IMG/VR virus record: IMGVR_UViG_3300012155_000088
Coordinates: 1-4,668 of that record
Length of the DNA stretch: 4,668 nt
From: a virus
Taxonomy: Duplodnaviria; Heunggongvirae; Uroviricota; Caudoviricetes
Strand: one strand, 5' to 3'
This document shows, in pieces, positions 1-4,668 of the stretch. Under the pieces are notes generated by a model. The model ran no database searches and was not told the DNA's origin. It saw only the letters and a program-made list of their open reading frames with translations. Within the stretch, counting starts at the first letter, position 1, and each line of letters opens with the position of its first letter. The position numbers and the translations under genes are program-made.

Positions 1-100
1 ACCCATCTTTACGCATTTGATCTGGAACAGGTTTAACAGCGGATTATCAGGTCATTAAGCAAATATAACGCCCTGAGAATTTCGACAGGCAAAAGAAAAA

Positions 101-123
101 GGGGTTAGCATTTAGCTAACCCC
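101..123 (-). terminator. Rho-independent terminator hairpin (9-bp stem GGGGTTAGC/GCTAACCCC, 5-nt loop) immediately 3' of the tRNA fragment; possibly bidirectional
   Basis: Seen in sequence: perfect 9-bp inverted repeat at 101-109 and 115-123. On the minus strand it is followed by TTTTTCTTTT (complement of 91-100); on the plus strand by TTATCTTATTT (124-134). It lies about 10 nt downstream of the tRNA CCA end. Terminator function is inferred from this structure. Confidence 0.55.
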
Positions 124-133
124 TTATCTTATT

Positions 134-193
134 TGGCGGAAGCGCAGAGATTCGAACTCTGGAACCCTTTCGAGTCGCCGGTTTTCAAGACCG
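134..193 (-). tRNA. serT: Partial tRNA-Ser(UGA): 3' 60 nt only (anticodon stem-loop, long variable arm, T arm, acceptor 3' strand, CCA); 5' half absent; likely att core copy at the element boundary
   Basis: Reverse complement of 134-193 reads CGGTCTTGAAAACCGGCGACTCGAAAGGGTTCCAGAGTTCGAATCTCTGCGCTTCCGCCA. It contains an anticodon loop CTTGAAA (anticodon UGA), a long class-II variable arm, a T-loop GTTCGAATC and a terminal CCA. From memory it matches the 3' part of E. coli serT with about one mismatch. Sequence beyond 193 (AAGAAAAATAAAG...) cannot form the D arm or acceptor 5' strand, so the gene is truncated. Confidence 0.8.
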
Positions 194-334
194 AAGAAAA
201 ATAAAGAAAAATCAGTGCAATACGCAAAATAGCTGAAAAGTTAATCAGACTTAACACCAAGAAAAATCAAGATATTAGGGAGCTATTCAGAGTTAATATA
301 CCAAGTCTTTTTGCCAGAAAATTTTCTGGATTGC
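194..334. promoter_or_regulatory. Putative att arm between the core and int: A-rich, with three direct copies of AAGAAAAAT and an IHF-consensus-like site
   Basis: Seen in sequence: AAGAAAAAT at 194-202, 204-212 and 259-267, the last two extended to AAGAAAAATCA. AATCAAGATATTA at 265-277 fits the IHF core consensus WATCAANNNNTTR. The region contains no ORF and sits where lambda-type arm sites would be. Int or IHF binding is inference only. Confidence 0.4.
314..329. repeat. Perfect 16-bp palindrome CCAGAAAATTTTCTGG, 5 bp downstream of the int stop codon
   Basis: Seen in sequence: the 16-mer equals its own reverse complement. It is not followed by a T-tract on either strand, so it is not a canonical intrinsic terminator. 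It may be a protein-binding site or an RNA hairpin at the int 3' end. Confidence 0.5.
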
Positions 335-1354
335 CTACTTACTGACCACAAGCGGCAAATCCAGTGTTGGGGTGATTTTGGTTTTACGATCGTAAATCAA
401 CACCTGATTTTCTGTTTTGTGTCCACTGAAAATTTGTTTGTCGCGACTGCTGCCTTCGTAATCTGAAATCCCTTTGGCTTTTATGTCATGGAAGTTGCAC
501 CCAAACGGAACGCCGGCTTTTTGCTCGGCTGCACGTTTAGCCTGATTCCACCAGTTGTTCAGCGTCTTGGCTATTACCTTCCCGCCTTTGGTTGTGTTGA
601 TCACATACTCGCATGTGCCGGAAGATACATTTCGGGCTAACTGGATCGCCGTACGTAATCGCGGAGACCATTCCTTGATTTGTTTAGTGCCGGTCTTGTT
701 TTGCTCAATGTAAATCCCTTTATCCATAATATCCTGCCATTTCAGCTCGAGTACATCACCGAGCCTTGCCGCACAAAGATAGGATATCTCCATTGCAATA
801 CGTAACTGTGGAATTGCTTCCGCATATATTGCAGCATACTGTTCATCGGTGATGTAAACAGTACGGGCTTTAAGTGTGAATTTTCTGACTCCTTTGCATG
901 GATTATTTTTCACATACCCACGCTCATATCCCCATCCGTATACACGGCTCAGACTTGCCAGTTCATGGTTTGCCTGGGTCTTGCTCTCAAGTCCTCGCTT
1001 ATCCATGAAAATTCTTACCTGTTCAATTTTTACATTATCAGCAAGCACTTTTCCGAATACTGCCAACAATACCCTTTGATGTTGCCGATAATCTTTTTGG
1101 GTTCGGGGGGCCAGTTCTGTAAATGCAGGGGAGTCCATAAACATGTGCCATAATTTAGCGACGGTCATTATGTTGTGGAGTTTTGCTTTTTCCAGCTCAT
1201 AATTTTGCCAGACTTTAGCTACGCTGGTTTCCCGCACTCTTCCGAGCCCTATAGTTCTTGTGCTTCCTTCGGGTTTCCATACGTAACTGTAACCATTCGA
1301 TCTAACACGCGGTGGTAGTGCATTATCTTTTTTGTTTTTTCTTGGTCTTCCCAT
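335..1354 (-). CDS. int: Tyrosine-type site-specific integrase, phage lambda Int family (339 aa)
   Basis: The N-terminus MGRPRKNKKDNALPPRVRSNGYSYVWKPEGSTRTIGLGRV parallels the lambda Int arm-binding domain (MGRRRSHERRDLPPNLYIRNNGYYCYRDPRTGKEFGLGRD, from memory). The catalytic-domain blocks AARLGDV (Arg I), YIEQNKTG (Lys), FHDIK (His), FSGHK (His II) and LIYDRK (Tyr nucleophile) are in lambda-like order. RBS GAGG sits 9 nt upstream of the ATG at 1354. The gene lies next to the tRNA-derived att site. Confidence 0.95.
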   Translation of the reverse strand: MGRPRKNKKDNALPPRVRSNGYSYVWKPEGSTRTIGLGRVRETSVAKVWQNYELEKAKLHNIMTVAKLWHMFMDSPAFTELAPRTQKDYRQHQRVLLAVFGKVLADNVKIEQVRIFMDKRGLESKTQANHELASLSRVYGWGYERGYVKNNPCKGVRKFTLKARTVYITDEQYAAIYAEAIPQLRIAMEISYLCAARLGDVLELKWQDIMDKGIYIEQNKTGTKQIKEWSPRLRTAIQLARNVSSGTCEYVINTTKGGKVIAKTLNNWWNQAKRAAEQKAGVPFGCNFHDIKAKGISDYEGSSRDKQIFSGHKTENQVLIYDRKTKITPTLDLPLVVSK

Positions 1355-1574
1355 TGTTCAGCGCCTCAAAATCGGGTTCAGCGGAAACCAGTTCAGGTGC
1401 TTTTGGCATCGTAGTCAGTCCGTGTGGAATATCCCTGCGAAGAACTATTGGTTCGTTTTTAGGACCGATTACAAATGGGATACCGTGCAGCCTTAACTGG
1501 TGTTGCTGTTTTGTGTATCGCTCGTATTTCGTGATCTCTTGAATCTCTGCTGGCGATAGAGTTAATTCGTACAT
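1323..1574 (-). CDS. xis: Excisionase (lambda Xis-like, 83 aa); its 3' end overlaps the int start by 32 nt
   Basis: Small basic protein immediately upstream of int and overlapping it, as in lambda xis-int. The N-terminus MYELTL resembles lambda Xis MYLTLQEW and the basic tail NNGKTKKKQKR resembles lambda RIRNGKKAKS (from memory). Only a weak AAGG lies about 12 nt upstream of the ATG. Confidence 0.8.
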   Translation of the reverse strand: MYELTLSPAEIQEITKYERYTKQQHQLRLHGIPFVIGPKNEPIVLRRDIPHGLTTMPKAPELVSAEPDFEALNNGKTKKKQKR

Positions 1575-1640
1575 GTGGTCACGTGCCTTACAGCATGACC
1601 GCCGCCAATATAATTCGGAGACGGCGATCAGGGTTGAACA

Positions 1641-4112
1641 TTAAAAATCAACCGGATTCGGGATCAGTTTTTGCCAGATAGCTGAAACGTATTTTGCCTG
1701 GTAACGAGCGTCATCAAGTGCATTGTGGCACTCACCTTCGAATGGAATATCCGTTATGGCATCGAAGTCTATGGCTTTCCCCAGCTCAACGATTGTGCGT
1801 ACATCGCGATCGTTGCAGTAGCGCCACGGGCAGGGGATACCCTGTCGTTCGTATGAACGGCGTAAAATCACGTTGTCGAAGTTGGCTCCATTCCCCCAGA
1901 CCTGGACAAAAAATTCACCGGAGTTTTCGTCGATAAATTCCCGCAATTGCAGTAGTGCATCATCTAACGGAATTTCATCGGTCAGAAGGGCAGATTGCGC
2001 CTCGCGTGATTGCTTGAGCCACCATTTTATGGTGTCACGATCAATGACTCCGCCAGTAGTTTCCAGATCGATGGTCTTGCTAAATTCCGGCCCCATATCT
2101 CCGGTTTGCGGATCGAAAAATATTGCACCTATTGAGATAATCGGGGCATCTGGATTTTTTCCCATGGTTTCAAGGTCGATCATTAGATGGTCACACGTCC
2201 CGCTGGTGGATGTGCTTTCATGATGACCGTTCACCTTAACTGAGTGATCTGTCGCCTCACCAGTTTCATTATCGCTGGCGTGGTCCTGAGCGCTGCCAGC
2301 ATTCTCCTTGTGTTGATGTTCAGCGCCTTCCATTTCCTCTGGATCATTTTCCTGAACTTCAACCTGATTCTCTTCATCGAATGTTTCCTGGTATGTTGCG
2401 TCGCCCATAACCGCGCCACAATCAGGGCAGTTGCCGCCACCGCTCTGACCGCAGGCGGTGCAGACTTTTTCCGGTTCCTGTTGCGCTACTGGCTCAGGTT
2501 GTTTCGTTTCTGGCTCGTTTTGTAACGCATTTTGGCTGTTTTGTTCCGCTTTCTGGTCGTTCTGTTCCGATTCTTGCTGGTTCTGGTTTACAGAATCGCG
2601 GGTTTCAATCCCCTTCACCCATTTCGGATCATTCGGGTCGCTAATCCCTGCAACAAATTCTCCGCGAGAGGCAGCAAGCAACTTATCGGCGTCAGGCTGG
2701 CTGATATTGGCTGCCTGCATAATTTTGTTTACTTCGTCAGCGGTAACTTTTACCGGCTCTGGTTGTGCGGTCGTGTCAGATGCACCAGTATTTTGTTGTG
2801 AACCTGAGTATGTACCGTTTTTGCGGGCGAAATATTCTTCTTTCGTGATTTCAGTAGCCCCGGCAGCCAGCGCCTTATCCAGACCAGAAAGTTTGTTTGC
2901 ACGACCATATTTTTCGCCATCCTTATCTGTGAAGAGGAAGTAGAACGGCCCCTCACGCTCTACAGATGGTTCGACTTCCACTTTGCATTCGGTTTTTTCG
3001 TTGTCCGGAATTGCCGTTTCCACTGCATCAGTTTCTGGTACTGGCGACGAGAGAGTATCAGTTGCGCTCTGATTTGTTCCTTCATCTTCAAACACGCCCT
3101 TTGTAGTCAGGTATTCAGTAATGTATTTGTTCAGTGCCACAGGGTCTTTGTGAATGTCGATCGGACGTTCACGGACAAGGCCAAAAATAGTCTGGCGGTC
3201 GTAGCGAAGGGCATCAGGCTGTTTGCGCATTGATGCCGAGATACGCTTCCAGTCTTCGCGGTCGTTGTCGATAACTTCATTTTTTGCCCAGCGATGGATG
3301 CTGCCGTCAATGTTTCCGGCATCAATGTCACCAGGCCACAGAGCGTAGGCCAGTTCATCATCCAGTGTTTTCCATGTCTGCTTGTATTCGCGACGAATGG
3401 TGGCAGTGGCTGGGGGGATTTTCGCTACTGAGTTTTCAGTGTTCTGCCGGTTGACTCTGGCGCGGGCAAGATCAACAACAGACGTGTATTTCCCGGTTTC
3501 TTTGCGTTCGGCTTCGCGACGTTTTTTCCAGGTGCGTAATTCTGTCTGGATCTCAGGCCATTTTGCACCCGGCTTACATTTATGTTTAACCCACCTGATG
3601 GCGAGCAGCTTAAGCTCTGAATACATGACGTTAACTTCAGGCATTTTCATCAATGCCTCAACGATATGCCCGTTGAATGTTGTCATGTCCTCCTGCAGTA
3701 ATTCCTGAGCACTAATCACCATATCAACGGTGATGTTTTCACATGTACCGAACTTAACCAGGACCGCGTTCTGTACTTCAAGGGACAGCTTGTCAAAATT
3801 GACGTTCATCGGATCGGATTCTGGTTCGACCGGAACAAAGGAAGCGCCTTCCTCATCCCAGCGGTTTTCCAGCATATATTCGGTATCCCAGGAGTCGATG
3901 GCAGGGCGGGGCATGCCGGGTTTATCCTCGCAAACAAGAAATTTATAAGCGCAGTCCTGAGCAGTCGGATATTGCTCCAGGAATTGCCAGGTAAATTTGG
4001 CACGGGCGCGGTGTTCGTCGCCGGCTTCAATGGCAGTGGCTACAGCGACTGCACCTTCTTCCTTTATTGCCTGTTCGTCCGGAATGGCGGCGCAAATAAA
4101 GACTTTACTCAT
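1641..4112 (-). CDS. Large modular prophage exonuclease (823 aa): unassigned N-terminal region, acidic Q/E/N-rich linker with Cys4 zinc ribbon (possibly RecE-like), C-terminal DnaQ-like DEDDh 3'-5' exonuclease domain
   Basis: Single uninterrupted 823-codon ORF with RBS GAGGT 8 nt upstream of the ATG at 4112. Exo I motif MIDLETMG (D646, E648), Exo II WGNGANFDNVIL (D746) and Exo III ECHNALDDARY (H796, D801) are seen directly, with spacing typical of DEDDh exonucleases. Zinc-ribbon motif CTACGQSGGGNCPDC at residues 551-565 (nt 2418-2462). The central segment DADKLLAASRGEFVAGISDPNDPKWVKGIETRD and the Cys4 block appear, from memory, to resemble the middle of E. coli Rac RecE. Confidence 0.85.
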   Translation of the reverse strand: MSKVFICAAIPDEQAIKEEGAVAVATAIEAGDEHRARAKFTWQFLEQYPTAQDCAYKFLVCEDKPGMPRPAIDSWDTEYMLENRWDEEGASFVPVEPESDPMNVNFDKLSLEVQNAVLVKFGTCENITVDMVISAQELLQEDMTTFNGHIVEALMKMPEVNVMYSELKLLAIRWVKHKCKPGAKWPEIQTELRTWKKRREAERKETGKYTSVVDLARARVNRQNTENSVAKIPPATATIRREYKQTWKTLDDELAYALWPGDIDAGNIDGSIHRWAKNEVIDNDREDWKRISASMRKQPDALRYDRQTIFGLVRERPIDIHKDPVALNKYITEYLTTKGVFEDEGTNQSATDTLSSPVPETDAVETAIPDNEKTECKVEVEPSVEREGPFYFLFTDKDGEKYGRANKLSGLDKALAAGATEITKEEYFARKNGTYSGSQQNTGASDTTAQPEPVKVTADEVNKIMQAANISQPDADKLLAASRGEFVAGISDPNDPKWVKGIETRDSVNQNQQESEQNDQKAEQNSQNALQNEPETKQPEPVAQQEPEKVCTACGQSGGGNCPDCGAVMGDATYQETFDEENQVEVQENDPEEMEGAEHQHKENAGSAQDHASDNETGEATDHSVKVNGHHESTSTSGTCDHLMIDLETMGKNPDAPIISIGAIFFDPQTGDMGPEFSKTIDLETTGGVIDRDTIKWWLKQSREAQSALLTDEIPLDDALLQLREFIDENSGEFFVQVWGNGANFDNVILRRSYERQGIPCPWRYCNDRDVRTIVELGKAIDFDAITDIPFEGECHNALDDARYQAKYVSAIWQKLIPNPVDF

Positions 4113-4192
4113 TTTGTTTTAACCTCATTACAGATTTAAGGGTGAACAAATCCCTGCCATTGCTGGCATCTAAAAATAAAACCGGATATTAA

Positions 4193-4396
4193 TTACGGTG
4201 CTGCTTTAAGTCCTGCCGGGATTTCGTTATTGTCCATGCGAATAACTTTATCAACCGGATAACAGTTGCCGGGAATTTTCTGTTCCGCTGCGGCAGCCAT
4301 GCATTCTTTCATTGAACCGTAAATGTCAATAACCAGGTCAACAGGCTCGCCCGTATTAAGAAAAACTGTCAGAGTGAGAGCAATTGCTGTATTCAT
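4193..4396 (-). CDS. Hypothetical small protein (67 aa from the ATG at 4396) with an N-terminal hydrophobic segment; translationally coupled to the upstream ORF
   Basis: The ATG at 4396-4394 overlaps the upstream ORF's TGA stop in an ATGA arrangement. AGGA lies 8 nt upstream of this ATG. The N-terminus MNTAIALTLTVFL is hydrophobic. A longer in-frame form starts at 4450 (85 aa; KR followed by a hydrophobic core, signal-peptide-like) but has a poor RBS and a 58-nt overlap with the upstream ORF. No recognisable family. Confidence 0.5.
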   Translation of the reverse strand: MNTAIALTLTVFLNTGEPVDLVIDIYGSMKECMAAAAEQKIPGNCYPVDKVIRMDNNEIPAGLKAAP

Positions 4397-4581
4397 TGCC
4401 AGCATCCTTTTTGCATCGGGCGTAAACGTGCCAGCATTGAAAGAATGCATATTTTATTTAATAGCTCCCGTTCGTGTTTTCTCTTATTAATGGCATCTTC
4501 AGTAAATGCAGGGTTACTGATTCTGACACCAATTTCAAAACAACCTTCAGACGTATTAACGTTTGGTAATAACGTTTCCAT
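4393..4581 (-). CDS. Hypothetical small protein (62 aa from the ATG at 4581); reading frame stays open to the window edge, so it may be 5'-truncated here
   Basis: Strong RBS GAGGA 7 nt upstream of the ATG at 4581. The stop overlaps the start of the downstream ORF. The same frame has no stop codon between 4582 and 4668, so the true start could lie beyond the window. No recognisable family. Confidence 0.5.
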   Translation of the reverse strand: METLLPNVNTSEGCFEIGVRISNPAFTEDAINKRKHERELLNKICILSMLARLRPMQKGCWQ

Positions 4582-4668
4582 TATCGCGTCCTCAACAATG
4601 AATTTTGTGATGCGGTGCCTGGTGCCTCCAGGTGACGTTAACCAGTTAACAATTAACGCCGGATACAG

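Follow-up and report, generated by a model that had tools for sequence, protein, structure and literature searches.

The ydfE-type gene of the prophage

The virus record IMGVR_UViG_3300012155_000088 (Caudoviricetes) provided the stretch of 4,668 nucleotides analysed here (positions 1 to 4,668 of that record; called the window in the following), which forms the left arm of a prophage of the lambdoid type, integrated beside the host gene yccA. All prophage genes discussed below are located on the minus strand. At positions 1641..4112 the window carries an intact gene for a modular exonuclease of the ydfE type, which consists of 823 amino acids and was defined by the list of open reading frames (ORFs), PHROG 2082 and Pfam. 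In RefSeq this ORF is named either 'exonuclease' or '3'-5' exonuclease'. Here, we found that the encoded protein carries a DEDDh-type exonuclease domain at the end of a RecE-like scaffold and that both constituents of a RecET or lambda Red two-component module, a PD-(D/E)XK 5'-3' nuclease and an adjacent annealase, were not detected.

Domain architecture

PHROG 2082 covers the 823-residue protein from end to end, and Pfam recognises three families in it, YdfE_N (PF27430), YdfE_C (PF27432) and the Rv2179c-like family (PF16473). The assignments to PF27430 and PF27432 are precomputed hits on the exact protein. The N-terminal domain YdfE_N (residues 1-205; 3498..4112) comprises a small beta-alpha-beta unit (residues 1-95) and a helical bundle (residues 111-205). 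It is followed by a predicted disordered linker (residues 206-245; 3378..3497), in which the predicted local distance difference test score (pLDDT) is below 50 across most of residues 206-237, and by the helical domain YdfE_C (residues 246-340; 3093..3377), for which AlphaFold2 predicts helices at residues 247-338 and which BLASTP aligns with RecE from residue 278 to about 360. The original prediction had found no assignable motif in the first 470 or so residues. This statement did not hold, since YdfE_N and YdfE_C are both located there and residues 1-256 share 84% identity with the product of the Escherichia coli K-12 pseudogene ydfE.

A conserved motif of about 50 residues (385-436; 2805..2960) was delineated by alignments with relatives that carry an annealase-like tail (see below). 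It reads GPFYF..DG.K.GRANKL..G..EI..EEY.ARKNG, and its near-invariant columns are common to these relatives. The motif is absent from Rac RecE, where it falls into a gap of the alignment, and neither a family nor a structure could be assigned to it.

The C-terminal part of the protein contains the DEDDh 3'-5' exonuclease domain (residues 642-813; 1674..2189), which was assigned by Pfam, by its similarity to T4 DexA (PDB 8KEL) and by alignment. PF16473 matched with an E-value of 2.1e-66 and 223 bits (cut-off 27 bits) over profile positions 2-177 of 177. When the full protein was searched against the sequences of the PDB, T4 DexA (8KEL, E=7e-6) was the sole match, and the RNase Rv2179c was not found. 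An alignment with T4 DexA and two standalone homologues from lambdoid phages shows the residues D646, E648, D746, H796 and D801 to be invariant, and 90 of 95 full-length relatives have intact catalytic motifs. Thus, Pfam and the alignment indicate a DEDDh fold and not a PD-(D/E)XK nuclease, and the catalytic residues are positioned as the original prediction had placed them. By homology, the domain is predicted to cleave nucleotides off 3'-OH ends through two-metal catalysis, in which D646, E648, D746 and D801 would bind the metals and H796 would act as general base. As substrate, DNA is more probable than RNA, because the nearest characterised relatives of the domain are DNA exonucleases.

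T4 DexA (PDB 8KEL/8KEN) belongs to the same DEDDh subfamily and all five catalytic residues align, but sequence identity amounts to only 25%. With 227 amino acids, DexA of the virulent phage T4 is a standalone enzyme and carries W152 where the 823-residue protein has a cysteine. It is a 3'-5' DNA exonuclease with roles in the breakdown of host DNA and in the processing of ends during intron homing, and its residues W152 and D169 have been proposed to recognise 5-hydroxymethylcytosine (5hmC) (Kang et al., 2025; PMC12153337). We found that Cys763 (codon at 1824-1826) aligns with W152. In the E. coli family, this position is occupied by His (42 proteins), Cys (26), Tyr (23) or Thr (1) among homologues that are otherwise more than 90% identical, whereas standalone phage homologues retain the Trp. 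The alignment of the D169 region to the 823-residue protein is unreliable.

The E. coli DexA homologue EcD ('HREX', GenBank HAK9828821.1) is a standalone protein as well. For comparison we used EcD-like proteins of 189 amino acids, which were recovered with the published EcD forward primer (the reverse-primer sequence was not matched exactly). They share 39% identity with the C-terminal domain over 182 residues (E=3e-38), and the catalytic residues are conserved in common. In contrast to the 823-residue protein, in which the nuclease is fused to a scaffold of about 640 residues and Cys replaces the Trp, EcD (about 189 residues) keeps the Trp and has an Ala at the position of DexA D90. The residue aligned with D90 (Ala78 in EcD) is an Asp in the 823-residue protein, in an alignment that is too weak at 25% identity to be relied on.

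Relation to RecE

BLASTP aligned residues 262-622 of the protein with residues 278-588 of K-12 RecE (E=3e-61). Within this region, residues 474-622 (2247..2693), which form an acidic segment rich in Q, E and N, share 68% amino acid identity with RecE 454-588 (about 75% without a 14-residue gap) and 77% identity at the nucleotide level. This segment includes a Cys4 zinc ribbon of the form C551-x2-C554-x7-C562-x2-C565 (2418..2462), which was recognised in the sequence and is kept in Rac RecE with all four cysteines. A RecE-like central region with such a ribbon had been suggested for this gene, and the highly significant alignment bears this out. The homology stops at residue 622 (RecE 588), just ahead of the nuclease of either protein. 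The NCBIfam RecE model PRK09709 matches residues 217-625 with an E-value of 5.5e-82, which is far under its cut-off, and the RecE equivalog NF007259 reaches 276 bits (cut-off 1269), with only model positions 241-602 matching.

The flanking domains are different. In Pfam, the PD-(D/E)XK 5'-3' nuclease domain PF12684, which K-12 RecE carries at residues 615-850, is not present in the 823-residue protein. Similarly, Pfam gave no match to the N-terminal Exonuc_VIII domain PF06630, which is located at residues 2-178 of K-12 RecE (E=6e-98), and YdfE_N is found in its place. Taken together, the protein has in common with Rac RecE (P15032) the overall length, the multi-domain layout, the central acidic region with the Cys4 ribbon, the C-terminal position of the catalytic module and the early-left site near xis-int. 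It differs in its YdfE_N terminus, in the predicted type of nuclease (DEDDh, 3'-5') and in the lack of a RecT, whose gene lies downstream of K-12 recE.

Occurrence and conservation of the gene

Many E. coli chromosomes match the window at about 96% identity, and of 5426 complete E. coli genomes about 704 contain at least 80% of it. The 823-codon gene represents ydfE in its intact form, whereas the Qin prophage of K-12 carries a pseudogene. In Qin, ydfE (locus L006, 5079-5999) corresponds to the first 256 codons of the gene and is truncated by IS2E; thus, K-12 has lost the whole RecE-like middle part and the exonuclease domain. Isolated phages that carry the gene at 85-89% identity include Tritos, Evi, HannyBb, PhiR42_1 and mEp460_ev081. 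The Tritos protein gp27 is 86.5% identical over its full length, and the gene order of this phage (CI-ydfABC-DicF-DicB-YdfD-exo-xis-int) is the same as that found here. In the records of Tritos (OV696610), ON470619, LR597641 and others, the DEDDh homologues are labelled 'exonuclease VIII, ds DNA exonuclease' or 'exodeoxyribonuclease VIII'. This label implies a 5'-3' PD-(D/E)XK enzyme, which is the wrong type of nuclease, and was taken over from the RecE-like middle part that these proteins share.

Comparison with three homologues yielded ratios of nonsynonymous to synonymous substitution rates (dN/dS) of 0.13-0.31 in each of four segments, which indicates purifying selection along the protein. 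In the comparisons with loci L001 and L007, the synonymous rate itself was 0.05-0.07 for residues 261-470 and 0.27-0.60 for residues 1-260. This difference between segments, about five- to nine-fold, indicates that the gene is a recent recombination mosaic. Not all copies are intact. In Escherichia albertii (L010, 8004-8548) and Shigella flexneri (L011, 10492-11045), the DEDDh domain aligns in two to three pieces in differing frames, and frameshifts seem to have turned these copies into pseudogenes, in contrast to the intact gene in the window.

The object itself is real, but its novelty and interest were overstated in the original prediction, since the family is already catalogued in RefSeq, PHROGs and Pfam and the Tritos homologue serves as a prototype in a published classification of phage recombination modules (Zheng et al., 2025; PMC12315714). 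In our literature searches we found no paper characterising YdfE: queries on 'ydfE' gave incidental mentions alone, and nothing was retrieved on ydfE as a Qin exonuclease or on Rv2179c-like domains in prophages.

A combinatorial family of scaffolds and tails

Our scan of genome contigs for related loci comprised 10 loci, with one genome per species. When we mapped the domains of the 823-residue protein and of RecE on representative relatives, YdfE-type and RecE-type N-termini were found in all combinations with DEDDh and PD-(D/E)XK tails. A protein of phage vB_EcoS-813R8, for example, has a RecE-type N-terminus followed by the same middle part and the same DEDDh domain, and many proteins that combine PF06630 with PF16473 are present in Citrobacter. 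A third class of tails unites 35 of the 36 proteins that have neither nuclease. It includes no Pfam domain above threshold, and the proteins carrying it, such as P0287 of Salmonella (789 amino acids), are called 'exodeoxyribonuclease VIII' in Klebsiella, Salmonella and Enterobacter. That this tail is Rad52/ERF-like became apparent only from Pfam matches below threshold and from a comparison of folds. A profile search of its alignment against the PDB gave no match, and BLASTP against the Rad52 protein of phage mEpX2 was not significant. A further protein with the same scaffold (P0127, 702 amino acids) has a tail at residues 455-702 that is unlike the annealase-like tails in sequence; Pfam gave no match for it and the only assignment was to PHROG 26058, a group of unknown function.

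The members of the family occupy one slot upstream of xis-int or are part of Gam-containing modules, and their partners differ with the tail. PD-(D/E)XK forms are followed by RecT, as in Rac, in P0132 and in the YdfE_N-type protein P0128, for which the downstream gene matches Pfam RecT with an E-value of 2e-36. In Salmonella, the annealase-tailed form has Gam on one side and a Gp157-like gene on the other, and a separate annealase is missing. The DEDDh fusions invariably occupy the last position ahead of xis-int, and tblastn searches of the 10 DEDDh-type loci detected no homologue of RecT, Rad52, SSB, Gam, Abc2 or Gp157 within 8-10 kb. For several further loci, including that of Tritos, the annotation or Pfam tables likewise contain no annealase. 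On the window's own contig, annotation and Pfam tables list no annealase in the entire operon from CI to int, so that a recT or bet gene immediately upstream of the exonuclease gene, which would have made it an ordinary RecET-like module, is not present.

The same catalytic domain also occurs without any scaffold. Standalone DnaQ-like exonucleases of lambdoid phages (mEpX2 gp32, epsilon34 DnaQ) are 59-60% identical to the catalytic domain and are likewise encoded in the early-left operon. These proteins of about 180 residues are found between SSB and Abc2 near a Rad52-type annealase; in mEpX2 the exonuclease (182 residues, 59% identical) is part of a Rad52-SSB-exo-Abc2 module.

Taken together, these data place the 823-residue protein in a combinatorial family of about 5000 members, in which a scaffold of N-terminal domain, helical domain, acidic linkers and Cys4 ribbon bears an exchangeable C-terminal recombination effector. 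The swap of a nuclease module on a RecE-like scaffold, which the original prediction had suggested, gains support from those relatives in E. coli and Citrobacter that join a DEDDh domain to a RecE-type N-terminus and from those that combine a YdfE-type N-terminus with a PD-(D/E)XK nuclease and RecT.

The early-left operon

The exact 823-residue protein is encoded on one metagenome contig of the European Nucleotide Archive, which carries the complete early-left operon in the order CI-like repressor, YdfA, YdfB, YdfC, DicB, DUF1482 protein, 823-codon gene, xis and int. This is the early-left (dicB) operon of a lambdoid prophage of the Qin/Tritos type, and the window contains its distal part. The cell-division inhibitor DicB (62 amino acids; 4393..4581) was identified by Pfam PF05358 (E=6e-37) and NCBIfam NF049927, and the YdfD-like DUF1482 protein (annotated with 67 amino acids; 4193..4396) by Pfam PF07358 (E=4e-20). 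These proteins correspond to the two upstream ORFs of 62 and 67 residues noted before, and the statement that no ORF of RecT or Bet size lies between the exonuclease gene and xis was also correct. For the DUF1482 gene, the longest ORF (85 codons) begins at 4450, so that its first 58 bases lie within the end of dicB, whereas the 67-residue form, which RefSeq gives for a 96%-identical locus, starts at 4396 with a 4-base overlap with the dicB stop (ATGA), as is typical of translational coupling. Downstream of the exonuclease gene follow a DUF4224 excisionase-like gene (1323..1574; Pfam PF13986) and the gene of a tyrosine integrase (335..1354; Pfam PF00589 and context), which forms the prophage end adjoining yccA.

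A Shine-Dalgarno sequence (GAGG, 4126-4123) is located ten bases 5' of the ATG of the exonuclease ORF (4112). In the 80-base gap upstream of this gene we did not detect a promoter-like site, although the promoter and terminator scan performed at chance level overall. Since such a site was not seen, the simplest reading is that the gene is co-transcribed with dicB from the repressor-controlled promoter.

Proposed role in recombination

As the likeliest of the readings considered, we tentatively propose that the protein is a 3'-5' DNA-end exonuclease that is made on induction and supports recombination by the RecBCD/RecA system of the host. According to this proposal, derepression of the DicA/CI-like repressor would lead to synthesis of the protein along with DicB, YdfD, Xis and Int. 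It would be the sole recombination-module function of the phage and, acting at DNA ends, would trim back 3' tails or flaps, whereas recombination-dependent replication and repair would be carried out by host RecBCD-Chi and RecA and not by a phage annealase. DnaQ-like nucleases do occur in lambdoid Rec modules (Zheng et al., 2025; PMC12315714). In this classification the four phages of the 'Tritos' type possess a nuclease but neither an annealase, an SSB nor an anti-RecBCD function and carry 7-21 top-strand Chi sites, and an annealase is absent from only 9 of 246 modules. The locus analysed here resembles this nuclease-only type in its homologue, in its gene order, in the lack of detectable partners and in the presence of several Chi sites, which were counted in the homologous prophage of E. 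coli CEA224S (L001). That prophage looks complete (45 kb, lambda-like head, P2-like tail) and contains 8 Chi sites compared with 1.4 expected by chance; the window's own prophage is only partly known.

Several observations weigh against this proposal. The Chi count of the CEA224S prophage approximately equals the E. coli genomic density and does not exceed it. A 3'-5' exonuclease destroys the 3' tails that are required for annealing and strand invasion and, as Lovett (2011) is cited in PMC12315714, host 3'-5' exonucleases mostly inhibit recombination. The same classification mentions sporadic DnaQ-type genes near int but does not count them as Rec-module genes. For Bet and Erf, none is listed, as checked in the annotation and Pfam tables only and not by a direct search of all loci. 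Finally, YdfE_N has no recognisable fold and thus nothing indicates what the scaffold binds.

As the main alternative, the protein might be an anti-phage exclusion nuclease, whose DEDDh domain degrades incoming modified phage DNA or phage RNA and whose scaffold serves as auxiliary targeting domain. We consider this unlikely, and the more general idea of an accessory anti-defence or exclusion function, which the original prediction had overstated, is speculation. EcD speaks in its favour: this homologue cleaves T4 DNA, protects cells from T4 when plasmid-borne and has been proposed to degrade modified phage DNA (PMC12153337), and the EcD-like proteins, which are 39% identical to the C-terminal domain, start with MIDTET and carry Ala78 as described for EcD. 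In addition, a 2026 preprint (PMC13344964) reports ISG20-like 'TONDO' exonucleases of the DEDDh type, which are encoded by prophages, have variable auxiliary domains and defend against RNA phages. The hypervariability (H/C/Y) at the position of DexA W152 could reflect an arms race. DicB, which is encoded in the same operon, is reported to block some phages when expressed. However, the Trp that is proposed to recognise 5hmC is not conserved but replaced by Cys763, and in the weak 25%-identity alignment the residue opposite D90 is apparently still Asp where EcD has Ala. PADLOC gave a generic CRISPR-associated DEDDh model as its only match (E=1e-4). Moreover, the gene is not in a moron-like position but lies deep within the early-left operon, where it has no separate promoter-like site, and because this operon is repressor-controlled the gene should be silent in the lysogen, unlike typical prophage defence genes. 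Finally, the same scaffold bears recombination effectors (RecE nuclease or annealase) in relatives.

The latter argument also weighs against a second alternative, in which the protein serves the lytic cycle as a scavenging or anti-defence nuclease similar to DexA. After induction, it would degrade host DNA or nucleic-acid components of host immunity such as small RNAs, multicopy single-stranded DNA (msDNA) or signalling oligonucleotides, and it would have no role in recombination. Its homology to T4 DexA, a participant in host-DNA breakdown, its presumed co-expression with the host-directed early genes dicB and ydfD and the naming of PF16473 after the exoribonuclease Rv2179c are consistent with such a function. 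We nevertheless regard it as quite improbable, since host-DNA degradation is not known for temperate lambdoid phages, the scaffold is not linked to any defence system and the sequence is nearer to DNA exonucleases than to Rv2179c, while the equivalence of its slot with that of RecE-RecT and of the annealase fusions points to recombination. A functionless and decaying RecE remnant, which arose through illegitimate recombination in cryptic prophages, might be inferred from the IS2E-truncated ydfE of K-12 Qin and from the multi-frame copies of S. flexneri and E. albertii. This possibility is effectively refuted and has a very low probability: hundreds of genomes as well as isolated phages preserve the 823-codon frame, the dN/dS ratios are low in all segments, the catalytic motifs are kept in nearly all full-length relatives, and independent lineages that combine RecE_N with DEDDh are widespread in Citrobacter.

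Implications for the family

Going beyond the single protein, the YdfE/RecE scaffold might be a general delivery platform for phage recombination effectors, which carries either a nuclease of 5'-3' or 3'-5' polarity or an annealase of the Rad52/ERF type, but we consider it doubtful that this picture holds as a whole. In such a platform the N-terminal domain and the zinc ribbon would hold the effectors at DNA ends or on a host factor. The DEDDh version would represent an annealase-free strategy, in which a 3'-5' end-trimmer feeds the RecBCD-Chi pathway of the host and no phage annealase is needed. Recombinases that combine scaffold and annealase in a single chain would be represented by the widespread 'exodeoxyribonuclease VIII' proteins without a nuclease domain in Klebsiella, Salmonella and Enterobacter. 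These are the 'RecE-2' proteins, to which the classification of Rec modules assigns no role (PMC12315714).

Full-length RecE differs in its recombineering behaviour from the nuclease domain alone. A 2023 review still lists the N-terminal domain of RecE as being of unknown function (PMC11611040). One scaffold with three recombination effectors, each of which follows its own partner logic, provides a handle on the job of this scaffold, and the nuclease-only module of real phages such as Tritos offers a setting in which it can be asked what a 3'-5' exonuclease does during the recombination of phages. Because the locus is common and already catalogued, the value of these data lies in the family-level picture and not in the window itself. 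The biology of interest is a 3'-5' exonuclease that would act on a RecE scaffold without an annealase, together with the likely scaffold-annealase fusions. The comparison also flags a systematic misannotation, in which proteins with a DEDDh nuclease or with no nuclease at all are named 'exodeoxyribonuclease VIII'.

Additional observations

In the CEA224S prophage, genes for a protein with a KwaB-like (Kiwa) domain (L001, 28165-29187) and for a Hok/Gef toxin (29595-29750) are located downstream of the replication genes. They are likely to be accessory defence and addiction cargo, separate from the exonuclease.

An Rfam scan of the window revealed nothing credible, and DicF lies past the window end. 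At the prophage/host junction, just outside the integrase gene, the window contains a perfect 11-bp G+C-rich hairpin (99-125), which is flanked by T-runs on both strands and resembles a bidirectional terminator. A weak Rfam match to ctRNA_p42d (E=0.76, not credible) overlaps this hairpin.

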